From a virus (taxonomy: Duplodnaviria; Caudoviricetes): DNA of 29,574 bases. The stretch covers positions 1-29,574 of the IMG/VR virus record IMGVR_UViG_3300038321_000170. One strand, given 5' to 3'. Under the pieces are notes generated by a model. The model was not told the DNA's origin, did not search any database, and saw only the letters and a program-made list of their open reading frames with translations. Position numbers and translations under genes: made by a program. This document shows, in pieces, positions 5,385 to 26,436 of this stretch; positions within the stretch are counted from its first letter, which is position 1; each line of letters opens with the position of its first letter.

Positions 5385-5394
5385 GAGGTTTAAA

Positions 5395-5529
5395 ATTAGA
5401 TATAAAAATACCAAGACGGGGGCTGTCATTGACAGTCCTTGTGTTATTAAAGGCGAAAATTGGATTGAAGAAATTGAAAAAGTTAAAAAGCCAGTAAAGG
5501 CAACAACAAAATCTAAAGCAAAGGGGTAG
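5395..5529 (+). CDS. Small post-capsid protein (44 aa), probable ATT start; not in ORF track
   Basis: GGAGG at 5384-5388, 6 nt before ATT; reads (M)RYKNTKTGAVIDSPCVIKGENWIEEIEKVKKPVKATTKSKAKG and fills the gap exactly. Confidence 0.6.
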   Translation: MRYKNTKTGAVIDSPCVIKGENWIEEIEKVKKPVKATTKSKAKG

Positions 5530-5534
5530 ATTAA

Positions 5535-7446: not shown

Positions 7447-7450
7447 AAAG

Positions 7451-7729: not shown

Positions 7730-8136
7730 TGGTGCTCGCGGTGTTCAGGGCCCGGTATAGGGCGGAGCTGCGGGCGGATTTTAGGGCTTATTATAATGTG
7801 AGTGCGGACCAAATCGGCACGTCCATCAGCGTGAGCGAGGCAATGGATCTGGCAGCGCAACTGCCAGCCGGGTCCCGGTGTATGACCGCGACAAATCCCG
7901 CCAATAAGTGGGACGTTAAGGATATTCTTTTGAATAATGTTTCGAACACTGTAAGTTTGTTGGCGTGGGCATTAACAAGTACCGGCAAAACAGAGTGCCC
8001 TAAACCCTTTGTTTTACCGGGCATGGATGAGGCTCAAAAATCCGGGGCCAGTAAAACCCGGAGAAGTCCATCTTATACAGTAAAGGAATGCCAGAAAATT
8101 TTGAGTCAACCCAGAAAGGAGGCTTCTTATGGCTGA
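7729..8136 (+). CDS. Tail assembly chaperone gpT part (G-T fusion)
   Basis: -1 frame relative to gpG; ELRADFRAYY...LAAQLPAGSR pattern; precedes TMP. Confidence 0.75.
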   Translation: MVLAVFRARYRAELRADFRAYYNVSADQIGTSISVSEAMDLAAQLPAGSRCMTATNPANKWDVKDILLNNVSNTVSLLAWALTSTGKTECPKPFVLPGMDEAQKSGASKTRRSPSYTVKECQKILSQPRKEASYG

Positions 8137-10054: not shown

Positions 10055-10055
10055 T

Positions 10056-10901: not shown

Positions 10902-10918
10902 ATTAAAAAGGAGCATAT

Positions 10919-11323
10919 ATGAGTACGAAAACAACCCTTATGAAAATGACCTGCCCGGCGGTGACCGATGATGTGCAAAGCACCATATCGGCGCTTGCGG
11001 CTAATTTTAATATTATTGACGCTTTGTATCCGATTGGAACGATCTATCAGAGCACAAAATCGACTAATCCTTCCACCTTTATTGGGGGGACATGGACGGC
11101 GATTCAGAACAAATTTTTGGTAGGTGCTGGATCTGACTTTGCGGAAGGGACCACCGGTGGGCAGAAAACAATGGGTGTTCATAAATCCGGCGATGAAGCA
11201 GACGGATACGGCCTATCTCAAGTTACGGGTTTTGCTAACCGGGTGATGGTGGCCAGTCAGGATTATTCTGGGAAGATTTTGCCACCTTATAAAGCGGTGT
11301 ATATGTGGGAAAGAACTGCATAG
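10919..11323 (+). CDS. Baseplate/fibre-associated protein (T4 gp10 C-terminal-like domain)
   Basis: YPIGTIYQS...NPSTFIGGTW...FLVGAG...GTTGG...LPPYKAVYMWERTA. Confidence 0.7.
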   Translation: MSTKTTLMKMTCPAVTDDVQSTISALAANFNIIDALYPIGTIYQSTKSTNPSTFIGGTWTAIQNKFLVGAGSDFAEGTTGGQKTMGVHKSGDEADGYGLSQVTGFANRVMVASQDYSGKILPPYKAVYMWERTA

Positions 11324-11344
11324 TATTTTTTAAGGAGACACACG

Positions 11345-13525
11345 ATGTATCGATTGTTTTATGATGGTGAGGTGCTCCATGATCCGCGGGACGATAAACG
11401 CCGGGTGACCGAGTGTAAGGTGGAGTTGGAGTCCAATACGGCGGGGACCCTTACGTTTAAAATAGCGCCAGCGCATCCGCTTTTCGGGAAGCTCCAGGCC
11501 ATGGATACGGGCCACGAAGTGACCGTGATGGATGATACTGTAGAGGTTTTTCGCGGCCGGATCAAATCCGACGGAAAAGATATGCAGACCGTAACGAATG
11601 TGACTTGCGAAGGCCAATTAGCGTATTTAAATGACAGCGTTGTGCGGGCCTATGGAACGTATGCGTCCGATGATGAAAACTGGACCGTTGTGAAGGGGGA
11701 TAATATCTTTCGCTGGTACGTCAGCCAGCACAATGGCCAGAGCGATGCGAATAAACAATTTGTCATCGGTAAATGCGAAACGGGATACGGATTGACCCGC
11801 AGCAGCACCCAGCACCCGACGACGGGACAGGAGATCAAGGAAAAATTACTGGATGCTCTGCCTTGTTACATTGACTGTTACATGGACAATGGTGAGCGCA
11901 TACTTGACCTGCTGGAGTTTGGCGGAGCAGATGCAGAACAATCCATTGAATTTGGAACAAATTTGCTGGACTATGCCACTACTCGGGACGCATCAAACAT
12001 CATTACTGATATCATCCCGACAGGGACAGATAACGACAACAATGCGATTGATATTACGTCCTTGCGCGATGGGGATTATGGGAGCTGCTACAAGGAGGGC
12101 GACCATGTATCGTTTTCTGCGGGCGTTAATTTGTACGGGCACATCACCGAAGCGCGCAGTTATGATGGGACAACACCATCAGAGTTGCTGAATGCTTCGA
12201 TAAATGATTTACAGACGTCTTCTGAGGTAATAGAGAGTGTCAATATCAAAGCTGTGGATCTGCATAATGTGGATCCGACGGTGAAACCGATTCGTCTAAA
12301 TGAATGGGTGCTAGTAAGTTCTAAGCCCCACGGAGTGTATCAGCCCATGATGTGCGTGAAGATGACGATTGATATAAATGATCCGACTCGGACAGTATAT
12401 ACCTTTGGTGCAACGCTTCCGTCGCTGACATCAGACAGTGCTATGAAGGTGGCGCAGAACAGGCAACGGCAGGAAGAAATGATTGTGGCGGCAGCGGCTA
12501 TAAGTGTAGATGCCAAGGCAGCGGCTGAATTGGCTACGACAGCACAGATGGCTGCGAATACAGCCCAGACTGCGGCTAACACAGCCCAAAGTACAGCCGA
12601 TACGGCAAAAACCACAGCAGACACGGCGCAAGGTACTGCTAATACGGCAAAAACCACAGCAGACACGGCGCAAACCACAGCAGACACGGCGCAAAGCACA
12701 GCCGATACGGCAAAAACCACAGCAGACACGGCCACATCTAATCTGTCCGCATTAACAACACGCGTTTCCACAGCAGAGAGTAAGTTGACTGCAACCGCCT
12801 TGACAACGACAATATCCAGTGCCCTTACCGGTAGCAATGCTATTTCCACCACCAAATTTGTCATGGATAAGGATGGCCTGCTCATCAAAAGTGGTGGATT
12901 ATCTATCCAAAACAATGCGGGGACGACGGTGCTTAGCGCAGACGTGGCGGGCAACCTGACATTTACTGGGGCGCTGAATGGGGCTACTGGTACTTTTCGT
13001 GGGGCACTTACTGCCTATAATTCCTCAGGTAAATTACTGATGCAGGCTAGTGCGGGTAGGATTAATTTTTATGATGGAGCCAACAATGTCGTTACTGGGT
13101 ATGTTGATTCGGATCTGACTGCCAACACCAATAATATAAGGATAAACGGGAACGGCCTGCTTGCTTTATCTGTTTCGGGTACGCAAGTTGTGGGTATTGC
13201 TCAAAATCGATGCAATATTTATAAACCAATTTTATATCAAGGGGCATTGGTGACGATGCCGAGAATCTATGCGGGGACTGCTGTGCGTGACGCCGGCGGA
13301 GGAAATAGTGTGCAACTTATATCACTCTCTCAAATCAATAGCTGGTTTGGGATTAATAATGCAAGTGCTGTAAACACAGCAGTTTTTGTATCGAATGGCG
13401 ATGGCGCGGCTTCTAATGCACACTGCCAAGATGCAACTTTTTTAGGTGGAGAATGGTGGGCAACGTTCGACAGAACGGGCGTTACGACAATCCGTATCAA
13501 TTATTTAGTTGTCTGTTGGGCTTAA
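11345..13525 (+). CDS. Tail hub/spike (Tal-like) with coiled-coil stalk and C-terminal extension
   Basis: N-terminal phage tail endopeptidase-like domain (AGTLTFKI, CEGQLAYLNDS, IEFGTNLLD), heptad repeats, beta-rich C-terminus. Confidence 0.8.
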   Translation: MYRLFYDGEVLHDPRDDKRRVTECKVELESNTAGTLTFKIAPAHPLFGKLQAMDTGHEVTVMDDTVEVFRGRIKSDGKDMQTVTNVTCEGQLAYLNDSVVRAYGTYASDDENWTVVKGDNIFRWYVSQHNGQSDANKQFVIGKCETGYGLTRSSTQHPTTGQEIKEKLLDALPCYIDCYMDNGERILDLLEFGGADAEQSIEFGTNLLDYATTRDASNIITDIIPTGTDNDNNAIDITSLRDGDYGSCYKEGDHVSFSAGVNLYGHITEARSYDGTTPSELLNASINDLQTSSEVIESVNIKAVDLHNVDPTVKPIRLNEWVLVSSKPHGVYQPMMCVKMTIDINDPTRTVYTFGATLPSLTSDSAMKVAQNRQRQEEMIVAAAAISVDAKAAAELATTAQMAANTAQTAANTAQSTADTAKTTADTAQGTANTAKTTADTAQTTADTAQSTADTAKTTADTATSNLSALTTRVSTAESKLTATALTTTISSALTGSNAISTTKFVMDKDGLLIKSGGLSIQNNAGTTVLSADVAGNLTFTGALNGATGTFRGALTAYNSSGKLLMQASAGRINFYDGANNVVTGYVDSDLTANTNNIRINGNGLLALSVSGTQVVGIAQNRCNIYKPILYQGALVTMPRIYAGTAVRDAGGGNSVQLISLSQINSWFGINNASAVNTAVFVSNGDGAASNAHCQDATFLGGEWWATFDRTGVTTIRINYLVVCWA
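12538..12735 (+). repeat. Imperfect 21-nt tandem coding repeats (TADTAQ/K heptads)
   Basis: ACGGCAAAAACCACAGCAGACACGGC at 12602, 12644 and 12707 (spacings 42 and 63). Confidence 0.9.
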
Positions 13526-13550
13526 GCAAACATAAAAAAGGAGAATAACT

Positions 13551-13748
13551 ATGGCTTTAAAAAACAAAAATCAATCAATTAGTTTATCGGCACAAAAAAA
13601 TATTAATATTGGCCGAACGATATCAAATAGCGCTGCATACCGGGAGCACCGGACGGAATGCCTAGAAGACCAAACGGCCCTTGAGGATGCGGTGTACGCT
13701 ATTGTGGACAGTATGGCGCCGAAGGAGTCAACAAATGAAACTATCTAA
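13551..13748 (+). CDS. Small hypothetical tail-region protein
   Basis: SD AAGGAG; 65 aa; overlaps next gene start. Confidence 0.65.
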   Translation: MALKNKNQSISLSAQKNINIGRTISNSAAYREHRTECLEDQTALEDAVYAIVDSMAPKESTNETI

Positions 13749-14085
13749 CGCCACACTCATCGCCCTAATCAATGGCATTGGCACCATTCAGGAGGTAGAC
13801 TTCCCCGTGTCGGCCTCTTTTGCATTGTCGCAAAACACGGAGGCCTTATTGGATGCGTATAAGCCCTATGCCACGGAATACGAAAAGATTAACGCCAAAT
13901 ACGGCGATAAGCCGGAGCTTACCGCAAAGGTTCGTGAGCTCCAGGGACTCGAGGTGGATGTTGAGCTTAAGACATTGCCGGCAGAGTACTTGGAGATTAT
14001 TGTGGCATCTCCGGTACGGATGGCGATGGTCAATCTTAATGCGCTGCGGCGGTATATTTTTAGTGAGCGGAGCGAAAATGAATGA
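13735..14085 (+). CDS. Hypothetical protein (DUF1617-like)
   Basis: SD AAGGAG before ATG 13735; MKLSN...FPVSASFALSQN...KINAKYG pattern common after tail genes. Confidence 0.6.
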   Translation: MKLSNATLIALINGIGTIQEVDFPVSASFALSQNTEALLDAYKPYATEYEKINAKYGDKPELTAKVRELQGLEVDVELKTLPAEYLEIIVASPVRMAMVNLNALRRYIFSERSENE

Positions 14086-14308
14086 TGAAAAATTAGAACA
14101 CATTGTCGCAACCCACGAAAAGCGCATCAATGACCATGGGGAGCGCCTGGATAAGTTGGAGCTGCAAAGCAGCCGATTGGAAGAGCGCATTACGGCGCTG
14201 TGCGACAAATTGGAGATGCAGACTCGAGCCCTTAACTGGCTGATTGGGTTGGCGGCGACTGGGCTTGTTGGATTTTTTATGTATGCACTACAAAATAGTA
14301 TTTTTTAA
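14078..14308 (+). CDS. XhlA-family membrane protein (lysis accessory)
   Basis: HEKRINDHGERLDKLE coiled-coil plus one C-terminal TM segment (WLIGLAATGLVGFF); real start ATG 14078. Confidence 0.8.
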   Translation: MNDEKLEHIVATHEKRINDHGERLDKLELQSSRLEERITALCDKLEMQTRALNWLIGLAATGLVGFFMYALQNSIF

Positions 14309-14332
14309 AGGAGCGTTAAAATGAGCACAAAA
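14306..14332 (+). repeat. Direct repeat copy 1 (27 bp, 1 mismatch to 16882-16908)
   Basis: TAAAGGAGCGTTAAAATGAGcACAAAA. Confidence 0.9.
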
Positions 14333-14426
14333 TATGTTTTTTTTGCTGAAAGAAACGGGAATCAAGGCAGTAAGAACAATGGCACAGACCTCCGCGCTAA
14401 TTGGGGATAACCATGAGATATATTGA
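14321..14426 (+). pseudogene. Degenerate, frameshifted 5' holin fragment
   Basis: Same RBS/start as the holin at 16897; removing one T from the T8 run (14337-14344) gives MSTKYVFLLKETGIKAVRTMAQTSALIG vs holin [29 protein letters not shown]. Confidence 0.75.
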
Positions 14427-16767
14427 CGTGAAGCTGGATGGGACTTCGGTTCAGATGGAGCCAGTGGTTATCCGGCAGTACAACAATTTGGTGGATACGG
14501 TAGCGGTGAAGCTGAAGAGCGATATGGATGGGCTTGTGGTGGAGGATTACAATGTGTTCATCCAGACGGACCTTATAAGGCGGGATAAAATACCACTTGC
14601 CCCGTGCCCCTCATCGGTGGATATTGTCGTGGAAGAGGGCTATCTTGGTTACACTTGGCCAATTGATTCGGCGGTTACACGGTATAAAGGCATTTTGCGA
14701 TTTGAGGTACAGCTAGAGCATAAAACCGATGCTGCCATCCCAATCTGGCAGTCTGAGGTGTGCGAGCTGATTACTGTGGCACCAAATATCTGCGATAATG
14801 CGAAACTTGGGGATGATGGGCCTGCGATTTTGCAGGAGGTCTACCAGCAACTGCAGACGCTGGGAGACCAAGCGGAACAGGCGGAGGCCAGTGCCACAAG
14901 CGCAGCAGCCAGCGAAACCAACGCCGCAACCAGCAACCAAAACGCAGCCACCCATGAGCAGGCTGCAAAAGGATACGCCGATGCAGCTGAGCAATTTGCG
15001 ACTGCGGCGGGAGACGGGACTATCCCAACGGAGCTGTCGGACATGCGGGTGGGGTCCGACGGGACGACGACATATGCCACGGCGGGGGCCCGGGTGACAG
15101 GCGAAATTAGTGAACTAAATGCGACAATGATGCCAAGAAAAAATATATTTAACAAATCAAAAGTAATAGATGGAAGTTATGTTTCTTATAGTTCCGGATA
15201 TGTTTTTTCAAATACTGGATTTACAAGATCCGATTACATACAGGTATCCGCGTCAACAGCATATGTTGTAAATAATTATACATCATTACAAATGGCATTT
15301 TATGATAACAGCAAACATTATATTTCTGGATTTTATTATGGAAATGAATCATTAACTTTTACAACTCCGTCAACAGCTGCTTACATTAGATTTAGTGTTC
15401 AAAAATATATGATTGATGATTTTCAAATAGAACTTGGGATAAAACCTACTTTTTACGAAGAATATCAATATAAAATAGACGGAGATAATATTGGTGATAA
15501 AACGATTGATCTTAGTGCTCCGAAATATATTGACTATTATACACAATTTATCGATACATCAAAAGCAACGATTGGAAAATATTACGATAGATTATCAGAA
15601 TCGTTACAAATATCATCTGATACCGCTTATATACCAAAAATAAAAATAGAATCAGGTAAAACTTATTACTATAAAGGTATTTTTAATTATTACTGCACAG
15701 TGATAAATTTGGATGGAACTAAATTTGCTTTGTCTGATGTTACATCTGATAATGGCGTCGCTGGAAATTTAACGGCAGTAAAAGATGGATATATTTATAT
15801 CACGTTAAATGTTTCGGGCGGGGAAATAATATGGAGTCCAATGTTTTGTGATGGATTTTTGCCAGATAATTATATTGATGGGCATATATTTAATTTAAAA
15901 ATTGACGGACAAGGAATAGATCTTGGACCGTCGGTTAGACAAGTAACTGTAAAGACGGATGGCAAAGGAGATTACACAGGTATTAGGCAAGCGATGGATG
16001 CAATAAGTCCAGATAAGTATAATAATTATATTATAGAGGTGTATCCAGGCACATACGATATTAAATCCGAGTACTCAGAAGAAGAATGGGTAGATGATGG
16101 AAGCTTTAAAGGGCTGGTAGTAAAAGATTTTGTAACTATTCGCGGGATTGGAAACAAAGAAGATATCATATTGACTGCAATTGACACGGAATATAAAGTT
16201 AACATATCAGCATTAAATCTTAAGAATACTTGTGGGCTTGAAAATATTACAGTGAAAGGAGAGAAATTAAGATATGTAATACATGACGATTATGCAGATG
16301 CAGGACAAGGCGAATATAAGCGAATATGCAAAAATTGCATATTCGAAGGAACAGATTTAAACGCCAGTTACAATGTGGTGTACGGATCAGGATTGAAGCA
16401 GGGAGCTAATTGGATTTTTGAACAATGTATATTTAGTTACACAGATAAGTCAAATGGAGGAACATTTAGCACACATAATAACACAAGATGGGAAAGAGGA
16501 GCAAAATTATGTTTTAAAAATTGTAGATTTAAAGCAGGTACTGATGGGACAGGTGGATTATTTATTTTAGGAACTCTTGTGACCGGAGCTAATGGATTGA
16601 TAACAAACATTGAAATAATTGGAAGCAAAATTAAAACAATATTATTTAACAATCAAGAAGGAATCGGAAATTTATTTACTATATCAGGCTACGGGAACGA
16701 TATTGAAAATTTTTCTTATCAAATTAATGATGGACATACCTATTTAGATTATGTGGACTTAATATGA
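14413..16767 (+). CDS. Receptor-binding/depolymerase-like protein: BppU-like N-terminus, Ala-rich stalk, CBM-like repeats, pectinesterase-like beta-helix
   Basis: WPIDSAVTRYKGILRFEVQ...IWQS (BppU-like); FYD...YISG...FTTPSTAAYIRFS; VTVKTDGKGDYTGIRQAMDAI...IEVYPGTYD. Confidence 0.7.
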   Translation: MRYIDVKLDGTSVQMEPVVIRQYNNLVDTVAVKLKSDMDGLVVEDYNVFIQTDLIRRDKIPLAPCPSSVDIVVEEGYLGYTWPIDSAVTRYKGILRFEVQLEHKTDAAIPIWQSEVCELITVAPNICDNAKLGDDGPAILQEVYQQLQTLGDQAEQAEASATSAAASETNAATSNQNAATHEQAAKGYADAAEQFATAAGDGTIPTELSDMRVGSDGTTTYATAGARVTGEISELNATMMPRKNIFNKSKVIDGSYVSYSSGYVFSNTGFTRSDYIQVSASTAYVVNNYTSLQMAFYDNSKHYISGFYYGNESLTFTTPSTAAYIRFSVQKYMIDDFQIELGIKPTFYEEYQYKIDGDNIGDKTIDLSAPKYIDYYTQFIDTSKATIGKYYDRLSESLQISSDTAYIPKIKIESGKTYYYKGIFNYYCTVINLDGTKFALSDVTSDNGVAGNLTAVKDGYIYITLNVSGGEIIWSPMFCDGFLPDNYIDGHIFNLKIDGQGIDLGPSVRQVTVKTDGKGDYTGIRQAMDAISPDKYNNYIIEVYPGTYDIKSEYSEEEWVDDGSFKGLVVKDFVTIRGIGNKEDIILTAIDTEYKVNISALNLKNTCGLENITVKGEKLRYVIHDDYADAGQGEYKRICKNCIFEGTDLNASYNVVYGSGLKQGANWIFEQCIFSYTDKSNGGTFSTHNNTRWERGAKLCFKNCRFKAGTDGTGGLFILGTLVTGANGLITNIEIIGSKIKTILFNNQEGIGNLFTISGYGNDIENFSYQINDGHTYLDYVDLI

Positions 16768-16836
16768 GTCAAATAGGGATTTATGCAAAAACATCAAAAG
16801 AGCGTACAAAGAATGATCATACACGGTGCATTATTT

Positions 16837-16858
16837 AAGAGACCTTCGGGTCTTTTTT
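16837..16858 (+). terminator. Rho-independent terminator
   Basis: AAGAGACC-TTCG-GGTCTTTT plus T run. Confidence 0.8.
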
Positions 16859-16881
16859 AATTGCGTTGAATTCATCAATTA

Positions 16882-16908
16882 TAAAGGAGCGTTAAAATGA
16901 GTACAAAA
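16882..16908 (+). repeat. Direct repeat copy 2
   Basis: TAAAGGAGCGTTAAAATGAGtACAAAA. Confidence 0.9.
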
Positions 16909-17121
16909 ACAGTAACATGGATTAAAGCGGCAGGCGTTAGAGCGGTTAAGACTGTGGCACAGACCGCCGTGGCAACCATCGGCACTGCCGCAGTGATGGG
17001 TGAAGTCAATTGGATTATGGTGGCATCCGCTGCTGGATTGGCCGGGGTGCTATCTATCCTGACCAGTGTAGCAGGGTTGCCAGAAATTAAGGGGGAAAAT
17101 GATGAGTTTAAACGGAATTGA
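16897..17121 (+). CDS. Holin, r1t family
   Basis: [22 protein letters not shown]...[11 protein letters not shown], two TM segments, precedes endolysin. Confidence 0.92.
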
Positions 17122-18508
17122 TATCGCGAGTTATCAGGCCGGGATTGATTTAGCTGCTGTCCCAGCGGATTTTGTCATCGTCAAGGCGACACAGGGGACG
17201 GGCTACGTTAATCCCTATTGTGATGAGCATTATCATGCGGCAAAAGCCGCAGGTAGGCTTGTTGGTGTCTATCATTATGCTGGTGGCAACGGCGCAGAGG
17301 CAGAGGCTGAGTTTTTTGTAAACAATATCCGCGGTTACCTGGGAGAGGCGCTACTCGTGCTGGACTGGGAAGCGGCGGAGAACAGTGCCTTTGGCAGTGT
17401 TGACTACGCCAAAGCATTCTTGGACCATGTGTTTGCGCTTACTGGCGTAAAGCCGCTGATTTACATGAGCTCCAGCGTTGTGACCGGCTGCGACTGGTCC
17501 GCTGTGGCCGCTGGGGACTACGGCCTATGGGTTGCCGGGTATTATAATGGCTACAACGCGATGTCGTACAATTCAGACGCGCCGATGCAAAATATTGCTT
17601 ATTGGGGCTGTGCGTCCATGTATCAGTACACGAGTTCGGGTCAACTGCCCAATTATGGCGGAAGCTTGGACTTAGATGTATTTTACGGTGATGAAAGCGC
17701 TTGGCGGGCCTATGCCGGCACAGCACAAGCCCCATCAGACCCCGAGCCGCCAACGGGAGATGTGCCTATCACGGATCGCCCAATCTGCAATGAGCAGCAT
17801 TTCGGCATTTGGGTGCGCAATGTCCATGACAATGTGGGCGTATCTAAAGTTATGGCAGCTGTATGGTCCGCTTTTGGTGGACAGGACGACCTGGTCTGGT
17901 ATGATATGGCTCCGGCCCCTGACGGTGAGGCAGATAGCTATGCGCTATCCATTGACGTGGCCAAGCATGGTGGCGTCAGCGACGGGAACAACATCATCGC
18001 GGATGTATACGCCTTTGACGCAGCTGGAAACAGGCGTTGCCTTGGCCGGTGTACAACAGAAATGACGACTCGGATTGATAGCCCACTAAAACCAATGGGG
18101 AACGTGATCAGTAAGGCGCACGTTCAAAATTTTGGCTGGCTGGATACCGTGGGCGAGGGTGAAACGGCTGGTACCACGGGCAAGGGGTTACGACTAGAGG
18201 CTCTAGCAGTGCGGTCCTGTATTGATGGGATTATGGTCAAACTGCAAGGCCATGTTGAGGATTACGGATGGATGCATACCATTAACCAGGACCAGGCAGT
18301 CGGGACGATTACACAGTCGAAACGACTGGAAGCGATCAAGCTTACATTGGAAGGCGAAAAGGCGGATCGGTACACCATTACCTACCGTGCCCACGTCCAA
18401 GGAATTGGCTGGATGGATTGGGTTTCCGACGGCACGATCGCCGGTACGACCGGCAAAGGCCTGCGCATGGAAGCCGTGCAGATAAAAATCGAAAAGAAAG
18501 CGGCTTAA
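17099..18508 (+). CDS. Endolysin: GH25 muramidase + Bsp-like domain + ChW repeats
   Basis: [24 protein letters not shown] (GH25); [15 protein letters not shown] (Bsp-like); three HVQ/E..GW...GT...LR(L/M)EA repeats (ChW). Confidence 0.92.
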
Positions 18509-18514
18509 AGCCCC

Positions 18515-18542
18515 TTGATTAATTTTGTGTATTATATAATAT
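18515..18542 (+). promoter_or_regulatory. Possible sigma70/sigmaA promoter for the ncRNA unit
   Basis: TTGATT 18515-18520 with TAATAT at 16-nt spacing (TATAAT at 14 nt). Confidence 0.45.
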
Positions 18543-18610
18543 AGAAGAAACGGAACGATACAACCCCATCCGCCAGAGCAGACAGGACATTGAAAGAAAG
18601 GAAGGACTAC

Positions 18611-18640
18611 ACAGAACAATAACACTAGGTGTATTTAAAT
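18611..18640 (+). CRISPR. Solitary 30-nt repeat resembling clostridial type I-B repeats (not an array)
   Basis: ACAGAACAATAACACTAGGTGTATTTAAAT vs remembered consensus GTTGAACNNTAACATNAGATGTATTTAAAT; intact 3' ATTTAAAT handle. Confidence 0.7.
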
Positions 18641-18689
18641 AAGTTGGAAAATAGTACGACTATTTTAAAACCGAACCATATTCCACATC

Positions 18690-18716
18690 CCCCTAGCTTC
18701 GGCTGGGGGCTTTTTT
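18690..18716 (+). terminator. Rho-independent terminator
   Basis: CCCCTAGC-TTCG-GCTGGGGG-C-TTTTTT. Confidence 0.9.
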
Positions 18717-18751
18717 ATTGCAAAAAATAAAAAAAATAATCTTAAAAACAC

Positions 18752-18780
18752 TTGACATTTGCCCTCTATGGGTATATAAT
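18752..18780 (+). promoter_or_regulatory. Consensus early promoter P1
   Basis: TTGACA-17 nt-TATAAT with A-rich UP region. Confidence 0.92.
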
Positions 18781-18832
18781 ATACTTAAAGATAAAGAGAG
18801 AGACAAGGAAAAGTCCAAAACACCAGAAAGAT
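18770..18832 (+). repeat. 63-bp perfect direct repeat copy 1 (-10 box plus leader)
   Basis: Identical to 19385-19447. Confidence 0.92.
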
Positions 18833-18838
18833 AAAAAA

Positions 18839-19306
18839 ATGAAAAGATTAGAATATAGCCAAGAAGTACACGATTTATTATTAGAAATAGCAGAAGAAGG
18901 GTCTTGTTATTGGAGATACCAAGGCTCCCATCACAACGGATTAATCCCCGTGGGACACAAATCCAACGAAAGAATTTTTGAAGGTGAAGAACCCGAATTT
19001 GAAGAAGAAGGGTGCTCCTGCTACGATAACCCTTGGCAGCTGCTAGAATACTTGGCAATCGACGGACAGGATTTAGACAAAACAGATGTGGTCCTGTTTG
19101 TTGGGGATCACGTGGGCTACGGAATCGTTGAAGAGGATGTAGTTGAAGTTACAGAAGAGTCCGACGTTATGTACTCTTTAAGTCTTAGAGATTTTTATAA
19201 ATTTGCTTTTAATGTTCCAGAAGACCTATATTGGAATACTTATAATGTAAAAGAAAAATTCTGCGATTATACAGAAGAGTTTATAAAAGAAGTTTTTAGC
19301 AAATAG
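18839..19306 (+). CDS. Highly acidic early protein (155 aa), candidate anti-defence factor
   Basis: Track start 18752 is the -35 box, so ATG 18839 is the plausible start; about 36 D/E vs 12 K/R by hand count. Confidence 0.75.
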   Translation: MKRLEYSQEVHDLLLEIAEEGSCYWRYQGSHHNGLIPVGHKSNERIFEGEEPEFEEEGCSCYDNPWQLLEYLAIDGQDLDKTDVVLFVGDHVGYGIVEEDVVEVTEESDVMYSLSLRDFYKFAFNVPEDLYWNTYNVKEKFCDYTEEFIKEVFSK

Positions 19307-19366
19307 GGGCAACTCATAATTTTAGGTAAAAAGTTCAATAATTTTTAAAAAAAATATAAAAAACTA

Positions 19367-19395
19367 TTGACATTCCCCCTCTAGGGGTATATAAT
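19367..19395 (+). promoter_or_regulatory. Consensus early promoter P2
   Basis: TTGACA-17 nt-TATAAT; spacer dyad CCCCT-CT-AGGGG. Confidence 0.92.
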
Positions 19396-19447
19396 ATACT
19401 TAAAGATAAAGAGAGAGACAAGGAAAAGTCCAAAACACCAGAAAGAT
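19385..19447 (+). repeat. 63-bp perfect direct repeat copy 2
   Basis: Identical to 18770-18832. Confidence 0.92.
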
Positions 19448-19793
19448 GAAGACAATGAATAATTACTACGAAAAATTGGACAAAGAACTTGGAAAAGAAT
19501 TACCAAGATTGGAAACGACAGAAATGTTTTACTTTACAGCCGGGCAAGTAGCCCGGTACATATTAAAGCAAGCACCGGCAGGACGGCATTACAATAAGAT
19601 TAATCCGTTGCTCGCTGCGAAAACGAGCGGGGAGCTAAAGAAAAAGATTTTAACAGCGTTTAAATCTAACAATAACATAGACCAAAATGAACGGTTTGAA
19701 CGTGCGCTTGCGATCGTCCTCGGATGGAAACAAGACGATCCGGTGGATGAAGAAACATTAATTTTGGGATACACGACAAAATCCGCATTTTAA
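19446..19793 (+). CDS. Stand-alone Cas8b(Csh1) C-terminal/Cas11b-like protein, candidate anti-CRISPR
   Basis: Collinear motifs FYFTAGQVARYIL, INPLLAAKT..ELKKKI...F, RFERALAIVLGW, VDEETLILGY match the remembered Csh1 C-terminal pattern; start could be ATG 19455. Confidence 0.72.
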   Translation: MKTMNNYYEKLDKELGKELPRLETTEMFYFTAGQVARYILKQAPAGRHYNKINPLLAAKTSGELKKKILTAFKSNNNIDQNERFERALAIVLGWKQDDPVDEETLILGYTTKSAF

Positions 19794-19854
19794 ACAAATT
19801 AAGCTGACCTACCGGCTACACGGGGAGAAAGATAAAACAATATGGGAGGAATAA

Positions 19855-20055
19855 TTGGACAACAATCTTATCCCGCTAACACAGTGGACAAAAATGAACG
19901 GTCTTAATCCACGCTATTGCCGTCGAAAGGCGGCACGCGGTGGATACAAAACAGCAGTTAAAATTGGTAGAGATTGGATGATCGACAAAAATGAAAAAAA
20001 TGTTGATCTAAGGGTAAAAAGTGGGAAATATAAAAATTGGAGGAACCGAAAATGA
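19855..20055 (+). CDS. Small basic HTH DNA-binding protein (HTH_17/excisionase-like), Aca candidate
   Basis: LIPLTQW...GLNPRYCRRKAARG..KTAVKIGRDWMID; SD GGAGG before TTG. Confidence 0.75.
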   Translation: MDNNLIPLTQWTKMNGLNPRYCRRKAARGGYKTAVKIGRDWMIDKNEKNVDLRVKSGKYKNWRNRK

Positions 20056-20363
20056 AGGTTAAAGGATTTGCAAATTATGGAATGTTGGCACACGAAAAGC
20101 AACCGGTTTTCACAATCGGCGGCATCCCGGCAGATTGTACAGTGTCGGATCGAGTGGAATTTGACATCCCAGACGATTGGGACGTGTTCGAGGGGTCGAC
20201 TGGCGACACCATTCTAGAAAACAAAAACAATGACAGATGGATCGCAAACCAGGTGCTGGAAAGCATCCACGGGGAACCCTATCTATCCGGTGTGGACGGG
20301 AACGGTAACAGCTTTAAAATTAAAATCGCCTATAAAAATTATAAAAATATTGAAGGAGAATGA
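20052..20363 (+). CDS. Hypothetical acidic early protein (103 aa)
   Basis: ATGA overlap with HTH gene; NYGMLAHEK motif. Confidence 0.7.
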   Translation: MKVKGFANYGMLAHEKQPVFTIGGIPADCTVSDRVEFDIPDDWDVFEGSTGDTILENKNNDRWIANQVLESIHGEPYLSGVDGNGNSFKIKIAYKNYKNIEGE

Positions 20364-20364
20364 G

Positions 20365-20532
20365 ATGAGCACACGAAAAGTAAAATATTTTGCGGCCACA
20401 GCTTTTGGGTTTGCAATTGCAACAATTGTTTGCTGCTCCCGCCCTGTTTCGGCGATTGGTGGAGAGTGGGCGCTCCCAATCTTATCGATTGGAGTTCTGG
20501 CGTTTAGGGACATGCTTAAGGTGCCAAGATGA
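20365..20532 (+). CDS. Small two-TM membrane protein (55 aa)
   Basis: SD AAGGAG before ATG 20365; hydrophobic segments around AIGGEW. Confidence 0.7.
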   Translation: MSTRKVKYFAATAFGFAIATIVCCSRPVSAIGGEWALPILSIGVLAFRDMLKVPR

Positions 20533-20705
20533 TTTATTGCGCTGAAATCGAACGCCCGTACAACACGGCGGGCGACCGCCACGGATGTTGCGCCAATTGC
20601 AGACACGTTTCGGCGTGCGGGGACGCGTGCCGGTACGTCGAAACGATTCAGGATGGATTTTGTGAGCACAATTTAAAAAATCAGGAGGGGGGGGGCAAAT
20701 CGTGA
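20529..20705 (+). CDS. Cys-rich small protein (58 aa), not in ORF track
   Basis: ATGA and GTGA overlaps on both sides; MIYCAE...GCCANCRHVSACGDAC...FCEH. Confidence 0.65.
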   Translation: MIYCAEIERPYNTAGDRHGCCANCRHVSACGDACRYVETIQDGFCEHNLKNQEGGGKS

Positions 20706-20887
20706 AGCGGATAAGTTTTGGAAAAGCGGGAGAGTTTGTTGACGCTCGATCCGATCAGGAAATTATGGAAAGGGAAGAGATGGAAAACATGGAATTTAAA
20801 CAACGGTATTATAGGGCGTATGGGATCAAAAATAAGCGGCTTAAAAAAATGCACGCGCGGCAGATCGGAGGGATGACCGATGATTAA
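20702..20887 (+). CDS. Hypothetical protein
   Basis: GTG start coupled to upstream stop; SD within a G9 tract. Confidence 0.55.
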   Translation: MKRISFGKAGEFVDARSDQEIMEREEMENMEFKQRYYRAYGIKNKRLKKMHARQIGGMTDD

Positions 20888-21206
20888 ACAATGTGACTGT
20901 AAAACGTGCGGGAACTTTTTCGAGAGCATGCTTAACAATTGCAGGGCGCTCAAGTTCATCGACAACGAGCCGGACCAGTGCCCAGCGAGAATGACAATCG
21001 AAAAAGCAAAGGCGGTGGATCGAATGGCCTACATCGACTACTGCAGCACGCAGCGCTGCATTATTTCGCCAAAGACATTCTTGAAGCAATTCGCCTGCAT
21101 TGTCATGAACAGGGACGAATTGGATGCAGTCTACAAGGAAATTGTTTTGCGTAAAGAAATAGAGTTGGGGCTTGCCCCAGAAAGCGCCTTAAAAAATGGA
21201 CGCTAA
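20880..21206 (+). CDS. Hypothetical Cys-rich protein
   Basis: SD GGAGG; CDCKTC...C...CPAR; overlaps neighbours. Confidence 0.65.
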   Translation: MIKQCDCKTCGNFFESMLNNCRALKFIDNEPDQCPARMTIEKAKAVDRMAYIDYCSTQRCIISPKTFLKQFACIVMNRDELDAVYKEIVLRKEIELGLAPESALKNGR

Positions 21207-21504
21207 AAAATTTGAATATTTTATCAATCTACTTTCAGACGTTCTGGATTATGCGGCGCTCAACAAACCGGACTCGCCGATCAACGTCCGGACCATCAAA
21301 ATCAACTTTCCAAAAGGCGGCGAACCTGAAATGATCGTTGAATTGAGGCGCGGCGTATCGGAATTGCAGAATTCCAGCGACATTTTTGGGCGGAACTCAG
21401 CGATCCCAACTTTTAGCTATGCGACCGTCGGGAGAAAAGAAGTTCTGGTGTCGCAAATCTATTCGGATGTGGAAATTAAGAATTACAGAAAGGAAAAAAA
21501 ATAA
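21196..21504 (+). CDS. Hypothetical protein
   Basis: Fills gap, coupled to next gene (TAATG). Confidence 0.6.
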   Translation: MDAKKFEYFINLLSDVLDYAALNKPDSPINVRTIKINFPKGGEPEMIVELRRGVSELQNSSDIFGRNSAIPTFSYATVGRKEVLVSQIYSDVEIKNYRKEKK

Positions 21505-21989
21505 TGAGTGAATTATTTGAGATTGCGAGGTGCTATTCGGACGCCGTAGAGGATGCCGAAACGGCGGTGGAAGCGCAAAGCGCGCTGGATCACATTGCCG
21601 AAAAGTTTAACACAAAAGCAGACAACATGGCCTGCCTGATTAAAAACTTAAGGGCAACGGCCACCGCAATGAAAGCTGAAGAAGCAGAAATGGCCAAGAG
21701 GAGAAAGGCGATTGAATCTAAAATCGAATGGCTAAAAATCATTTTAGCCGGCTCGATGAGACAGGCCGGTTGCAGGAAGATGGTTACCAACCGCAATGCG
21801 ATATCGTTTAGAAAATCAACTCGGCTGGTCGTTCCGTGCGAACAAGAAATCATCCAAAAATACCCAGAGTACGCCAAAACAAAAACGACTGTGACTCTGG
21901 ACAAAATTAAGCTGAAGGACGAATTGAAAAACGGCGTGATTATTGACGGCGCCGACCTGCAAGATTATCAAAATTTGCAGATTAAATAA
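21504..21989 (+). CDS. Siphovirus Gp157-family protein
   Basis: KADNMACLIKNL...EEAEMAKRRKAIE...ISFRKS...DKIKLKDELKNG..IDGA.L...NLQIK. Confidence 0.88.
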   Translation: MSELFEIARCYSDAVEDAETAVEAQSALDHIAEKFNTKADNMACLIKNLRATATAMKAEEAEMAKRRKAIESKIEWLKIILAGSMRQAGCRKMVTNRNAISFRKSTRLVVPCEQEIIQKYPEYAKTKTTVTLDKIKLKDELKNGVIIDGADLQDYQNLQIK

Positions 21990-22004
21990 GGAGGCTGTTT
22001 AAGA

Positions 22005-22613
22005 ATGGGATTACCCGTTTTAATTATGGGCAAGAGTGGATCTGGCAAGACCTTCTCGATCAAAGAGATGGATCCCGAATCGGTTGGAATATTTTCAGTC
22101 GAAAAAAGCCGGCTTCCGTTTCGCAAAAAGTTTCACGTAGCAGCCAACGCAACGTATACGATGATAATTAAGGCTCTCAGCGCGCCAAAGCTGAAGACTT
22201 ACATTATCGATGACTCGCAATACTTGATGGCCAACGATATGTTCGACAAGGCCAAAGTCACCGGTTATGGAAAATTCACAGATATGGCAAAAAAATTCCG
22301 GGATTTAATCCACTTCATCAACGCGCAAGTTCCGGGCGATGTGATTGTTTATTTTTTGCACCACACCGAAACGGATAGCAATACCGGAGAGGTGAAGGCC
22401 AAAACGTGCGGAAAAATGCTGGACAACCAACTGACAGTAGAGGGTTGCTTTAATATCGTGTTACTCGCAACAATAGAAGACAAAAAACACTATTTTGTTA
22501 CGCAATCAGACGGGACAACGACGGCAAAAAGCCCGGAAGATATGCTTGAAGAAAAGATTCCCAACGATCTAGCGGCGGTCGATTCCGCGATCCGCGAATA
22601 CTACGAAATTTAG
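22005..22613 (+). CDS. Sak4-like AAA ATPase (ssDNA annealing)
   Basis: Walker A GKSGSGKT, IIDDSQYLM, GYGKF, AKSPEDM...IPNDL; between Gp157 and SSB. Confidence 0.85.
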   Translation: MGLPVLIMGKSGSGKTFSIKEMDPESVGIFSVEKSRLPFRKKFHVAANATYTMIIKALSAPKLKTYIIDDSQYLMANDMFDKAKVTGYGKFTDMAKKFRDLIHFINAQVPGDVIVYFLHHTETDSNTGEVKAKTCGKMLDNQLTVEGCFNIVLLATIEDKKHYFVTQSDGTTTAKSPEDMLEEKIPNDLAAVDSAIREYYEI

Positions 22614-22623
22614 GAGGAAAACG

Positions 22624-23157
22624 ATGAAAAAAATTAATTGGAACGACGTGCAGGAAGCCAACGAGTTTGAATTATTACCAGCTGGAGGATATGAGTGCCA
22701 GATTTTAAGAGTTGATGACAACGAGGAAAAGGAATACTTAGAATTGGAATTTGATATTTGTGCCGGTCCGCAAAAAGATTTCTTCGTTAACTCATGCGCC
22801 GGTCTAGATTGGTGGCCGGGGTCGACGATCAAGTCGTACAAACAAAAAGCCTTGCCATTTTTTAAAGCGATGTTGACCGCCGTCGAAAATAGCAACGATG
22901 GATTCACGGCCAACACTTTTAGCGATCCTTCAGAATTGATCAACAAAAAAGTCGGCATGGTCATCGGACACGAACAGTATTGGAACGGAAACGGGCAGAA
23001 AAGAACGCGCATTCGGGTCGCGTCATTTAGGAGTCTGGACAAAATCCGCAAAGGCGATTTCAAGATTCCGGAACTAAAAATAAACGATTATAACAAGCCG
23101 GAAATTGACGGGTTTGTTGACGTCACCGACACAGACGATTCGGACTTGCCATTCTGA
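22624..23157 (+). CDS. Phage SSB (DUF669-like)
   Basis: LLPAGGYECQI start; acidic tail ending DDSDLPF. Confidence 0.8.
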   Translation: MKKINWNDVQEANEFELLPAGGYECQILRVDDNEEKEYLELEFDICAGPQKDFFVNSCAGLDWWPGSTIKSYKQKALPFFKAMLTAVENSNDGFTANTFSDPSELINKKVGMVIGHEQYWNGNGQKRTRIRVASFRSLDKIRKGDFKIPELKINDYNKPEIDGFVDVTDTDDSDLPF

Positions 23158-23603
23158 TGGCGGCTATTATCGAAGATACCCGGCAGCAGAAAGGCAAATA
23201 CAAAGAATCTCATAAATATTTTGCAGAAAATGGGGTGCAGGTCGTCCGGTCCAAGCTGGCCGTTGGCGACTATGCGCTCCCAGCACGCCGGGTGGTCGAC
23301 ACAAAAAAAGGTTTTGAAGAGGTCGTTGGCAATTTTTGCAGCGGCGACCGTGAAAGAGTAAAGCGTGAAATTATTAAATCTCGAGAAATTGGAACCGAAT
23401 TGATTTTTTTAATTATCGACAAGAAAGCAAAATCAATCGAGGACGCAAAAGATTGGAAAAATAAGTTCGGAAAAGTGAAAGGCATAACGCTCTACAAAAC
23501 GCTCGACACGTTTGCCAAACGATACGGAGTTCGGTTTGAATTTTGCACGCCTCAAGAAAGCGGGCGAAAAATATTGGAATTATTGGAAGGCGATGGAACA
23601 TGA
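23157..23603 (+). CDS. ERCC4/XPF-domain nuclease (probable resolvase)
   Basis: IIEDTRQQ, KLAVGDY, VVDTKK, RYGVRFEFC motifs. Confidence 0.85.
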   Translation: MAAIIEDTRQQKGKYKESHKYFAENGVQVVRSKLAVGDYALPARRVVDTKKGFEEVVGNFCSGDRERVKREIIKSREIGTELIFLIIDKKAKSIEDAKDWKNKFGKVKGITLYKTLDTFAKRYGVRFEFCTPQESGRKILELLEGDGT

Positions 23604-24136
23604 GGGCAAGATTGACAACAAAAGAAAAGGCAGATATCGCGAAGGCGACTGTCACGATGCCCGAACTGTTATGCGCGTTTGGGCTGGACGGCAACGCGCG
23701 GCACGGGCGAATCAAGTGCCCGATCCACAACGGTGCGAATGAAGGAAGTTTTGCATTCAAAGACCGCGTCTTCCACTGCTTTGCTTGTGGCGCAAAAGGC
23801 GGCGTCGTGTCGTTTGCCGAACAGTATTTGCATTGCGGTTTCGAGGACGCACTTCGGGAAATCAATCGCATGTTTCGGCTGTGGGAAGATGACCCGGACA
23901 AGCCGGTCAATATTGTCCGGCAGCAATCTCTTAGGAACCGCGCGCTTGAAGCCGAGAAGCGCAAAATCCAAGAGGCCAACAAGAAAAAAGCAGACTATGC
24001 GAAACGTCTTGAGCTTGCAAGGCTGGACGGCAACGCGATCCGATATGCGCCAAAATCTGAGTTGGACGAATTGGCGCCGGAATTTGTCGAAGCGCTGCAA
24101 AAAATAAGCGTACAAGAATACATTGCGGAGGCCTAA
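23600..24136 (+). CDS. CHC2 zinc-finger protein (DnaG-type zinc-binding domain without catalytic domain)
   Basis: CPIH...SF...FHCFACGAKGGVVSF; ATGA overlap gives start 23600. Confidence 0.85.
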   Translation: MRARLTTKEKADIAKATVTMPELLCAFGLDGNARHGRIKCPIHNGANEGSFAFKDRVFHCFACGAKGGVVSFAEQYLHCGFEDALREINRMFRLWEDDPDKPVNIVRQQSLRNRALEAEKRKIQEANKKKADYAKRLELARLDGNAIRYAPKSELDELAPEFVEALQKISVQEYIAEA

Positions 24137-24137
24137 A

Positions 24138-26087
24138 ATGGACAATTTTGAAATTGACAAAATAACGCCAGACGAAGCGACTTCCGAAAACATCTTCAGC
24201 GATGCGGTCTTCAATTATCTTTTCGGGCTGGATGACGTTAGCAGAGAACGCGAATACATCGCGTTTTGTGGAAAAGCCGAAAAACTTAGAAAAAAAACAG
24301 AGTTCATAAAGTTGTATAAACTTTTTGATAAGCAATACAAAAAAGCGGAACGCGACAGACAGGAGAGGATTCTTGAAGAAACTGGAGAGATTGAGGACCG
24401 CGGGCAGTTACAACACTTTTTTGGCAAAGAAAAGCCAAAGTACACGCCGCTCTATTGCGGGGCCGGTTGGAAGACAAGCCAAAACGGGATTTTTTTATCG
24501 ACGGCCAATGGGTTCCAACGGATCTGCCATCAGCCGGTTACGATTTTAAGTTTTTTTAAGAATGCCGAAACCGGGGAGGAAAAAGTCCGGATCGCATTTG
24601 CCAGACGAAAAAACCAGTGGGTCGAGATAACGCCCAACCGGAGCGTCATCGCCAGCAACGCCAAAATCGTTGGTCTGGCGGATACCGGTCTGGCGGTTAA
24701 CACAAACAATGCGAGAGAGTTTGTCAAATATTTCGCTGATCTGGAATCAAATAACACTAGCACAATTCAGACAAAGGTGTCGACGTCAAAACTCGGATGG
24801 ATAAAAAGTGGCGACGTCATGCAATTCGTCCCGTACGACACGAGCATAACGTTTGACGGAGCTGAAAAATTTAGAAATCTGTTCGCCAGCATTTCGGAAC
24901 ATGGCGACAAAGAAGCATGGGTCGAAAAAATAAAGACTATTCGGTCGGGCCGGATCGAACCGCGGATCGCGCTGGCCGCGTCCTTTTCGAGCGTGCTACT
25001 GTCGGTTTGCAATTTGCTCCCATATGTGCTCAATATCCACGGCCAAACCGAAGGTGGAAAAACAGTAACGCTCATGATGGCTGCTAGCGTCTGGGGCAAC
25101 CCGGACAAGGACGGAGGATACCTTGGAGACTTTTCGACAACGACCGTCGCGATCGAGACGAGAGCAGATACGGATAACAATTTGCCGTTGTTTTTGGACG
25201 ATAGTTCAAAAGTGTCCAAAAGAATCCAAGAAAACATGGACGAATTGGTCTACACGCTGTGTTCCGGGACTGGGAAGGATCGATCGAACCAAGACCTTGG
25301 ACTACGGCGGACAAACAATTGGACAAACTGCACGATTACGAACGGTGAACATCCGCTCGTTACGGACCAAGCGCCAGGTGGGGCAATCAACCGGGTACTT
25401 GAAGTTGAGTGCGATCCGGGCAAGCTGTTTGAGGATGGGCACGAAGCGGCCGAATTCTTCAAAGAAAATTATGGTTTCGGCGGAAGGATTTTTGTTGATG
25501 AACTCAAGAAAATCGGAAAAAAAGAATTAAAATTCCAGCAAGATTATTTTTTTAAAAAGCTGGTATCGGAGAATCCGGATGCCTTACAAAAGCAATGCCA
25601 TTCATGGAGCGCGATTATTCTAGCTGATCAAATTATGGATGCTACCGTTTTTCATGATGGCGCATCGCTGACAACCGAAGAAATTGCTCCGTATATAAAA
25701 AACACGACGGATGTTTCGGAAAACGAAAAATGTCTTGAATATCTGTACGAAAAAGTAGCGGCCAATGAAAACCGATTCGTAAAAGCCAATAACAAATTTG
25801 CAGAAACGCCACTGGAAGTCTGGGGGCGGATCGATACGGACGAGAATGGCCCGGCTGATAACATGGTCTACATTATAAAAAATGTTTTTGAAAAACTGTG
25901 CAAGGATGGCAACTTCTCAGCTCAAGCGTTTACTGCATGGGCAAAATTGCACGATAAAATTGTATGCAGCCCGGACAGACCGTACAAGCGCAAGCGGATA
26001 AACGGAAACGGATCGTCCAAACCGGTCTGGGCTTTGGCTCTTAAATATTCGGATCCGTTAGACGATTTTGAGGAAATTGTTGACTAA
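24138..26087 (+). CDS. DUF927-domain replication helicase/initiator (Cch-like ATPase)
   Basis: ICHQPV...ETGEEKVRIAF, SKLGW, Walker A GQTEGGKT, ASVWGNP, LPLFLDD, GGAINRVLE; SD GGAGG before ATG 24138. Confidence 0.85.
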   Translation: MDNFEIDKITPDEATSENIFSDAVFNYLFGLDDVSREREYIAFCGKAEKLRKKTEFIKLYKLFDKQYKKAERDRQERILEETGEIEDRGQLQHFFGKEKPKYTPLYCGAGWKTSQNGIFLSTANGFQRICHQPVTILSFFKNAETGEEKVRIAFARRKNQWVEITPNRSVIASNAKIVGLADTGLAVNTNNAREFVKYFADLESNNTSTIQTKVSTSKLGWIKSGDVMQFVPYDTSITFDGAEKFRNLFASISEHGDKEAWVEKIKTIRSGRIEPRIALAASFSSVLLSVCNLLPYVLNIHGQTEGGKTVTLMMAASVWGNPDKDGGYLGDFSTTTVAIETRADTDNNLPLFLDDSSKVSKRIQENMDELVYTLCSGTGKDRSNQDLGLRRTNNWTNCTITNGEHPLVTDQAPGGAINRVLEVECDPGKLFEDGHEAAEFFKENYGFGGRIFVDELKKIGKKELKFQQDYFFKKLVSENPDALQKQCHSWSAIILADQIMDATVFHDGASLTTEEIAPYIKNTTDVSENEKCLEYLYEKVAANENRFVKANNKFAETPLEVWGRIDTDENGPADNMVYIIKNVFEKLCKDGNFSAQAFTAWAKLHDKIVCSPDRPYKRKRINGNGSSKPVWALALKYSDPLDDFEEIVD

Positions 26088-26118: not shown

Positions 26119-26436
26119 TGTCCCAAGATTCTGCCCAATTGTCCCAATTTGTCCCAAAGCTTTGGGACACTTTTTAAGCCCGCAAACCCGCATTAACAGT
26201 GAGTTTGAGAACATTTAAAAATAAATGTCCCAATGTCCCATGTTTTCGCGAGGGGACATATATATACGTAAAAATAAAAAAATAATTAAATTATCAAAAA
26301 ATAATATTTTTGCCTATATAGAAAGCTGTTTTTTATTGGGACATTGGGACATCTTAAAAATAACGGCTGTAACCCGCATGGTTAAGCCATTTAAAATGTC
26401 CCAATCATTTGGGACACGTTGGGACATTATGGGACA
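26119..26436. repeat. Iteron cluster, probable replication origin
   Basis: Six TGTCCCA and six TGGGACA around an AT-rich core, directly after the helicase gene. Confidence 0.8.

Follow-up and report, generated by a model that had tools for sequence, protein, structure and literature searches.

AcrIB4, an inhibitor of CRISPR immunity reported from Listeria only, is a homologue of the C-terminal part of Cas8b (Katz et al., bioRxiv 10.1101/2023.06.24.545427). This region of Cas8b corresponds to Cas11, the product of an internal start, and AcrIB4 has been proposed to act by replacing Cas11 (bioRxiv 10.1101/2025.06.06.658234). Other inhibitors are RNAs. In the CreR layout, a repeat, a spacer and a half repeat lie upstream of cas genes (Shmakov et al., bioRxiv 10.1101/2023.03.03.530964), and Cracr RNAs are processed, occupy Cascade and repress a cas promoter; inhibition of Cascade lifts CreR autorepression, which the viral guide restores, and CracrIF has a shorter spacer, by which it evades its partner AcrIF24 (Liu et al., bioRxiv 10.1101/2024.10.29.618823). 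Predicted type I-B cases of this kind include Clostridium phages (both latter references). Here we compare these systems with an island of a phage (Caudoviricetes; positions 1 to 29,574 of IMG/VR record IMGVR_UViG_3300038321_000170). In this stretch of 29,574 nucleotides (nt), called the window below, a stand-alone Cas11b-like gene and a CRISPR-derived RNA unit lie close together after the endolysin gene.

The island includes a candidate Cas11b decoy gene and a mini-array, which on balance would probably disarm type I-B CRISPR in two additive layers. Like AcrIB4, the protein is a stand-alone homologue of the Cas8b C-terminal (Cas11) domain, encoded on a mobile element outside a cas operon. Likened to AcrIB4 by description, the present proteins differ in being clostridial and Bacillales, of Csh1 type, in one case fused to a helix-turn-helix (HTH) domain, and often encoded beside a repeat-derived RNA. 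No Listeria record was among the sequence-search matches of the window protein; Listeria type I-B presumably belongs to another Cas8b lineage. The RNA unit resembles Cracr RNAs and viral regulatory mini-arrays in being a phage copy of a host CreR-like repeat-spacer-degenerate-repeat arrangement with a short spacer. Its partner, however, is a Cas-derived subunit mimic, and the Cracr text mentions neither Cas11 nor Cas8. Racrs resemble it as phage repeat mimics near acr-like genes, with their own promoter and terminator (Camara-Wilpert et al., PMC10651486), whereas the window unit has a spacer and a second repeat that vary as those of a guide would.

Thus both parts have precedents, an AcrIB4-like decoy and a Cracr-like guide, and their pairing appears new. 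An initial annotation, made from the sequence alone, had been aware of no description of the pairing in one locus. This stands insofar as a Cas11 or Cas8b-fragment mimic together with a mini-array was not found in print, although the Cracr (219 candidates), Katz (358 viral cas loci) and Racr supplements may hold these loci. It does not extend to RNA-protein anti-CRISPR pairings in general, which are known as RacrIC1/AcrIC5 (PMC10651486) and CracrIF/AcrIF24 (bioRxiv 10.1101/2024.10.29.618823).

Homology identifies the protein. Its open reading frame (ORF) matched the PADLOC model PDLC01507 over positions 435-550 of 559 (E 5.7e-18), and phmmer returned 45 matches, mostly to the last 110 residues of proteins of 560-630 amino acids (aa), at 27-38% identity. 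The long homologues were Cas8b in all six tested, and one plasmid match is annotated Cas8b/Csh1. The homology is limited to the Cas8b C-terminal domain and, as the initial annotation had said, no other cas gene was found among the 42 window ORFs scanned with PADLOC and no regularly spaced array in the window. The ORF had no match in Pfam, NCBIfam or PHROGs, and a sequence search of the PDB was likewise empty; a word search found none of the longer homologues that phmmer later returned. Two phmmer matches (P0015 and P0036) proved on reading to be unrelated repeat proteins; P0021 has a similar multi-stretch pattern. A protein search of viral contigs gave no confirmed Cas11b-like relative.

We compared the stand-alone proteins with 43 host Cas8b ends at the 29 columns conserved in at least 70% of the latter. 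The window protein keeps 11 of these residues and the other 11 stand-alone proteins keep 7-16, against a host median of 23 (minimum 16); as aligned, the Cas11b-like protein has lost most host-conserved residues. In a tree, the window clade (four stand-alone rows) was sister to the Cas8b of genome G442, with support of 97/96. G442 belongs to a 53-species clostridial family that includes G439, the genome with the nearest prophage relative, and the same Cas8b model was matched in 15 of the 53 genomes. The stand-alone state needs three changes on this tree, at least two of them forced, with long branches and unsure placement. Stand-alone Cas11b-like genes were thus probably captured more than once. 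A complex predicted between the window protein and the G442 Cas8b C terminus scored 0.55 (best control, 0.01), with contact agreement of at least 76% and predicted local distance difference test (pLDDT) values of at least 84. This is weak support. Passes of this kind were obtained for 18 of 157 solved pairs and for 2 of 215 mismatched ones, and the one here may reflect likeness to solved Cascades.

The RNA unit occupies an ORF-free region (18509-18720) containing the type I-B-like repeat and a closing terminator. The repeat had been annotated as solitary, which did not hold, as a spacer and an eroded second repeat follow it. Taken alone, repeat 1 has a weak Rfam match (CRISPR-DR3; 26.2 bits, below the gathering score of 41; E 1.8), but it is identical at 23 of 27 aligned bases and keeps the 4-bp stem through a change on both sides. 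The same double stem change occurs at three other loci (L028, L033 and L036). The repeat belongs to a family of clostridial type I-B arrays that adjoins PDLC01507 cas8b genes in hosts; RNA and protein thus point to the same Csh1-type I-B lineage, in agreement with the initial annotation. A family regular expression, composed after the repeats had been seen, matched once in the window, against 0.005 times per resampled window and none in 137 background phage loci. Exact repeat 1 was absent from viral contigs and its C-G stem variant from genome contigs; when phages and plasmids were searched with the unit by blastn, all matches were short, clostridial arrays among them.

Related contigs aligned to 18500-18740 came from the source's own study (X3 and X4) and from other studies (X6 and X7). 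Their repeat 1 differs only at 18616 and at loop base 18626. In X6 the whole unit is present, with two changes in repeat 1, two in the spacer and a longer second repeat; an X3 contig has the same spacer as the window (one or two changes in X3 and X6), followed by an intact CreR-type half repeat; in X4, repeat 1 is followed by a different spacer. The first spacer base is changed in the window. The spacer folds into an 8-bp hairpin of its own, and the fold of the whole unit is unremarkable (z -1.1). Since the second repeat, eroded in the window, is intact in relatives, the unit falls outside the single-repeat definition of a Racr. By its layout it is a CreR-like mini-array located outside a cas locus, with a repeat, a short spacer and a degenerate second repeat. 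Cas6 cleaves the repeat 8 nt from its end, and every Cas7 subunit covers 6 nt; a guide of 29 nt instead of 35 nt would therefore recruit one Cas7 fewer.

The pairing of protein and RNA is frequent and recurs across unrelated elements without being obligate. When 399 scored Clostridia genomes were searched for Cas8b, a single match was to a stand-alone gene, in a prophage of G396 (L293). There, a prophage end beside an amidase endolysin carries a two-repeat mini-array, an HTH gene (HTH_17-like; E 0.0003, below the cut-off), duplicated promoters, acidic orphans and a 118-aa Cas11b-like gene. A search of the 53 family genomes added an integrative-element-like contig (L327; G426:C49), in which a 220-aa HTH_3-Cas11b fusion (1480-2142, minus strand) is directly followed by a three-repeat mini-array. 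In close kin of the window, L002 (1.6 kb) and L003 (5 kb), a Cas11b-like gene and an HTH gene follow the endolysin, and L003 has two Cas11b-like paralogues. Starting from the repeat, a Cas11b-like ORF lay within about 1.3 kb in 4 of 21 viral loci and in 0 of 137 background phage loci (Fisher P = 2e-4); the 21 comprise 6 single-match loci, 12 host-type arrays having been dropped, and all 15 of a second search. Two of the four are new lineages, L354 (PADLOC E 1.4e-9) and L352 (E 0.021, weak), with half repeats directly beside the gene. No further stand-alone gene was found in samples of 351, 301 and 351 genomes, the first two largely overlapping, which is not proof of absence. Short-frame matches in G482, G1013, G596 and G943 were dropped as cas8b genes of operons, split or at a contig edge, or as weak matches to genes other than cas, and plasmid matches H75, H77 and H80 as full Cas8b.

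Other repeat-derived elements were seen. In one phage family (L351, L353, L358, L359, L360, L362 and L363), a conserved 76-82-aa acidic gene precedes the 5' half of the I-B repeat, with a hairpin after it; the Cas11b-like gene is absent from all seven loci, and the half repeat with hairpin is possibly a Cas6 site or a decoy after a candidate anti-CRISPR gene. Further viral I-B mini-arrays with short spacers occur at L361 (1-130), L365 (3860-4022) and, near position 3000, L024, L034, L028, L033 and L036, one of them after an endolysin. Two Bacillus thuringiensis plasmids (L367 and L368) carry cas6-cas8b-cas7-cas5b, in one case followed by xerS; the 5 kb examined contain no annotated cas3.

Host operons provide the model for what such a guide could do. 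In this subtype a repeat-spacer-repeat layout often lies upstream of cas6; 17 such units were found in 33 loci. For 11 of the 17, with spacers of 23-34 nt, a site flanked by the protospacer-adjacent motif (PAM) TCA matches 12-14 of the first 15 spacer bases; the remaining units (five 35-nt array spacers and one short spacer) score only 6-9. The prophage of G396 has a guide of this type: its second spacer resembles the CreR spacer of G396 and matches the cas6 promoter of that host at 17 of 17 bases after TCA, the best of 2000 resamples reaching 10. The first spacer of L327 resembles family CreR spacers, with 10-11 of 15 bases at the CreR site in four of seven promoters. What defines a Cracr is a match of nine or more PAM-proximal bases to the CreR spacer or a cas promoter of a host. 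Such a promoter target exists for L293; for the window none was found in the genomes searched, its true host not having been identified. The window spacer has no self-target, and all target searches remained at chance level. Its first 17 bases are common to 42 viral loci, including a jumbo phage; these were rejected as a chance match, as they represent only two near-identical contexts with 23 of 32 bases matched and without a TCA PAM.

We propose that the decoy, if expressed, would replace Cas11 in Cascade and block stable R-loops, as suggested for AcrIB4, and that host Cas6 would trim the RNA to a short guide, which would occupy Cascade and steer it onto a host cas promoter. Many hosts of this subtype probably repress cas6 with a CreR guide of their own, and the phage guide would hold this repression. 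The two activities would belong together because poisoning Cascade alone would lift CreR repression and lead to more Cas protein, although either part can occur alone. Between the options raised initially, reprogramming of host Cascade fits better than a decoy CRISPR RNA.

Several observations weigh against this proposal. Counted from the protein, a repeat is present at two of five loci: L293 and L327 have one, and none was found at L366, a plasmid locus with a stand-alone Cas11b-like gene, or at L002 and L003, both of which are cut off by contig ends. Counting from the repeat is circular in part, because the motif was chosen after L293 had been seen and two positives are that prophage (L357) and its relative (L355); L352 and L354 have half repeats only, and the L352 protein is weak. 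The predicted structure (all-helical, pLDDT 85.7) is compatible with Cas11 but adds little. First in the fold search came PDB 3e0z (Z 10.2, root mean square deviation [rmsd] 3.1, 98 residues aligned), whose name is unrelated to Cas11, followed by a viral polymerase domain (Z 5.7). Type I-C Cas11/Cas8c ends matched modestly (Z 5.1-5.3, rmsd 3.5-3.9, 90-102 aligned), Cas11 of a type I-B CRISPR-associated transposon gave Z 3.7, and Foldseek found no match at E 0.001. The title of 3e0z (EUBREC_1070) is putative imidazole glycerol phosphate synthase homologue; it may have a Cas11-like fold. The window copy of the RNA unit may be decaying, because its second repeat is eroded and the region upstream is rearranged. 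No target of the window spacer lies upstream of cas6 in the loci examined, the upstream region of G442 cas6 being off the contig, and PAM-plus-seed scans of the 53 family genomes gave five and one matches, not above controls, with no cas locus among five read. Finally, if the decoy blocks DNA binding, it might put the regulatory complex out of action as well. The guide might escape it in the manner of CracrIF, because repression needs only the seed whereas Cas11 stabilizes the displaced strand. A bolder version, which we rate as less likely than not, is a recurring, co-adapted module directed at Csh1-type I-B CRISPR and assembled several times, in phages and in integrative elements. Its decoy would disable full-length Cascades, and the short-guide Cascade, one Cas7 shorter and in need of no more than a seed-length R-loop, would tolerate the decoy and shut the cas6 promoter. 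If so, host Cascade would repress its own genes rather than recruit a nuclease, and the CreR feedback alarm would fall silent, both components having been taken from the very system that they attack.

The absence of a target for the window spacer, and its internal hairpin, would also suit a target-free, Racr-like sponge for Cas6 and Cas7 that lies beside an AcrIB4-like gene only through clustering of anti-defense genes. Guide-less half repeats beside L352 and L354 and in the seven loci of one phage family fit such a sponge, and racr and acr genes are described as clustering and acting singly (PMC10651486). A sponge does not account for the CreR-like second repeat and short spacer, for a spacer conserved in a contig of another study and exchanged in X4, or for the promoter target of the L293 guide; we regard it as rather unlikely. 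The strong form of the initial annotation, an obligate RNA-protein pair that builds one dead Cascade, draws on the shared subtype, the recurring pairing and the direct adjacency in L327, L352 and L354. It is nevertheless very improbable because the available sequence of the close kin L002 and L003 contains one or two Cas11b-like genes but no repeat; L366 has no repeat either, the gene is absent from 17 of 21 repeat-selected loci, cassettes shuffle singly, and in the window a terminator divides the RNA unit from the gene, each of which has its own promoter.

The targets of viral mini-arrays are often other viruses (bioRxiv 10.1101/2023.03.03.530964), and the 17 bases shared with 42 viral loci could mean that the mini-array directs host Cascade at a phage or plasmid competitor, with the Cas11b-like protein a helper subunit or an unrelated passenger. 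Given the chance-like nature of those matches, a spacer shorter than immune spacers and a protein that lost conserved residues, we consider this highly unlikely. As little can be said for the RNA unit as a decaying relic beside working protein cassettes. Its eroded second repeat, changed first spacer base, upstream inversion and deletion, and lack of a canonical -35 box would fit, but the stem and handle of repeat 1 are intact and the terminator can supply a 3' end.

A two-layer island of the proposed kind would extend the range of Cas11-mimic anti-CRISPRs beyond one Listeria family, to several lineages of clostridia and Bacillales, and link them to phage copies of the host RNA for cas autorepression. 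It makes it possible to ask how an inhibitor that poisons a subunit keeps from setting off the CreR feedback loop. G396 is a natural test set: host operon, host CreR, a prophage guide with a perfect promoter match and a decoy gene. Off-switches for endogenous I-B tools in industrial clostridia could result.

The coordinates of the island are collected in Table 1. All parts listed by the initial annotation are present at 18515-20363 (ORF-free unit, repeat, two promoters with 12 of 12 consensus bases, orphans, Cas11b-like ORF and HTH gene), and the locus does look like an anti-defense island.

Table 1. Features of the island (window positions; +, strand shown)
Feature	Position	Strand	Remarks
-10 box, perfect	18535..18540	+	No consensus -35 at 16-18 nt; candidate RNA-unit promoter; absent from promoter scan output
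Segment inverted in four related contigs	18560..18586		X3, X4, X6, X7
Type I-B (Csh1-lineage) CRISPR-like repeat 1	18611..18640	+	4-bp stem via compensatory change; 8-nt 3' handle intact
Spacer-like guide, 29 nt	18641..18669	+	Shorter than 35-nt array spacers
Eroded second repeat	18670..18689	+	First 11 nt repeat-like; begins like the second repeats of host CreR units
Intrinsic terminator at the end of the RNA unit	18690..18719	+	Terminator prediction
Cassette promoter/leader, copy 1	18721..18850	+	12/12 sigma-70 promoter 18752-18780; conserved in L002
Acidic orphan, 155 aa, pI 4.3	18839..19306	+	No family matched; candidate anti-defense protein
Cassette promoter/leader, copy 2	19336..19465	+	12/12 sigma-70 promoter 19367-19395
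Stand-alone Cas11b-like protein, 112 aa	19455..19793	+	C-terminal domain of Cas8b/Csh1 (PADLOC); likely decoy subunit
29-nt intergenic motif	19803..19831	+	Precedes ribosome-binding site; widespread in phages
Xis-like basic HTH protein, 66 aa	19855..20055	+	PHROG 629, E 0.0013; no Pfam match
Acidic orphan, 103 aa, pI 4.7	20052..20363	+	No family or Atlas match; dispensable cassette, skipped in an X5 contig

Like acr-aca islands, this one has strong early promoters, small acidic orphans, an HTH gene and a slot after the endolysin; it differs in that the HTH protein has no match to named Aca families in the libraries searched and in that a 130-nt repeat and a 29-nt motif delimit the cassettes. 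The HTH gene also accompanies the Cas11b-like gene in L002 and L003 and is a candidate Aca-type regulator. Both promoters sit in the 130-nt direct repeat (84% identity between copies) and have a short inverted repeat between -35 and -10. The nearest Atlas clusters of the larger orphan are unnamed viral proteins, with recognition below the bar. In related contigs, promoter 1 is joined to other cassettes, with junctions that link 18845 with 19674 (plus 301 nt of other sequence), 18850 with 19843 and 20047 with 20352, and P0002 consists of the first residues of the larger orphan fused to the Cas11b-like protein. By these comparisons the island is a strongly promoted, modular phage gene cassette that shuffles. 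The counterpart of the inverted segment in the four contigs is a hairpin with a T-run after the endolysin, presumably a terminator, followed by 39-123 further bases, and comparison with them makes the window arrangement a derived inversion and deletion. A second repeat type ending at 18597 was rejected, as 18560-18586 is inverted in these contigs and reads as a terminator.

The 29-nt motif was found at 119 viral loci (L042-L160), with about 310 stretches estimated, nearly always in the order gene end, motif, ribosome-binding site; L003 has four copies. By eye it can be folded into a 4-bp stem and a small pseudoknot. It had no match in Rfam, its two halves occur together as text in no paper found, and it is a candidate undescribed phage RNA element. 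L004 (1640-1960) and L005 were rejected as stand-alone loci, having only a Cas11b-like gene remnant; in this other element, the remnant and the motif immediately precede a tRNA-like stretch, which an integrase gene accompanies. The related island of L003 encloses a J-domain-like protein (2978-3448; DnaJ E 2e-5, below the cut-off).

The virus record is 86% complete, with head, tail and lysis genes followed by the island and the replication genes. Its nearest prophage relative found, G439:C35, has 81% nucleotide identity at window 13735-14405. The phage is likely a lytic derivative, because G439:C35 has an integrase and a repressor in the slot of the island and neither family was matched among 23 window ORFs scanned with Pfam. 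The guanine-plus-cytosine (GC) content of the head module (1-6500) is 33-43%, against mostly 44-55% in the tail and replication genes (7000-26000), which suggests a swapped module. A 784-aa gene (within 14413-16767) with a low-GC, pectinesterase-like end is flanked by two copies of a holin start. Finally, 34-nt inverted repeats (26140-26173 and 26393-26426) with short iterated motifs, located 3' of a DUF927 helicase gene, are likely the replication origin.

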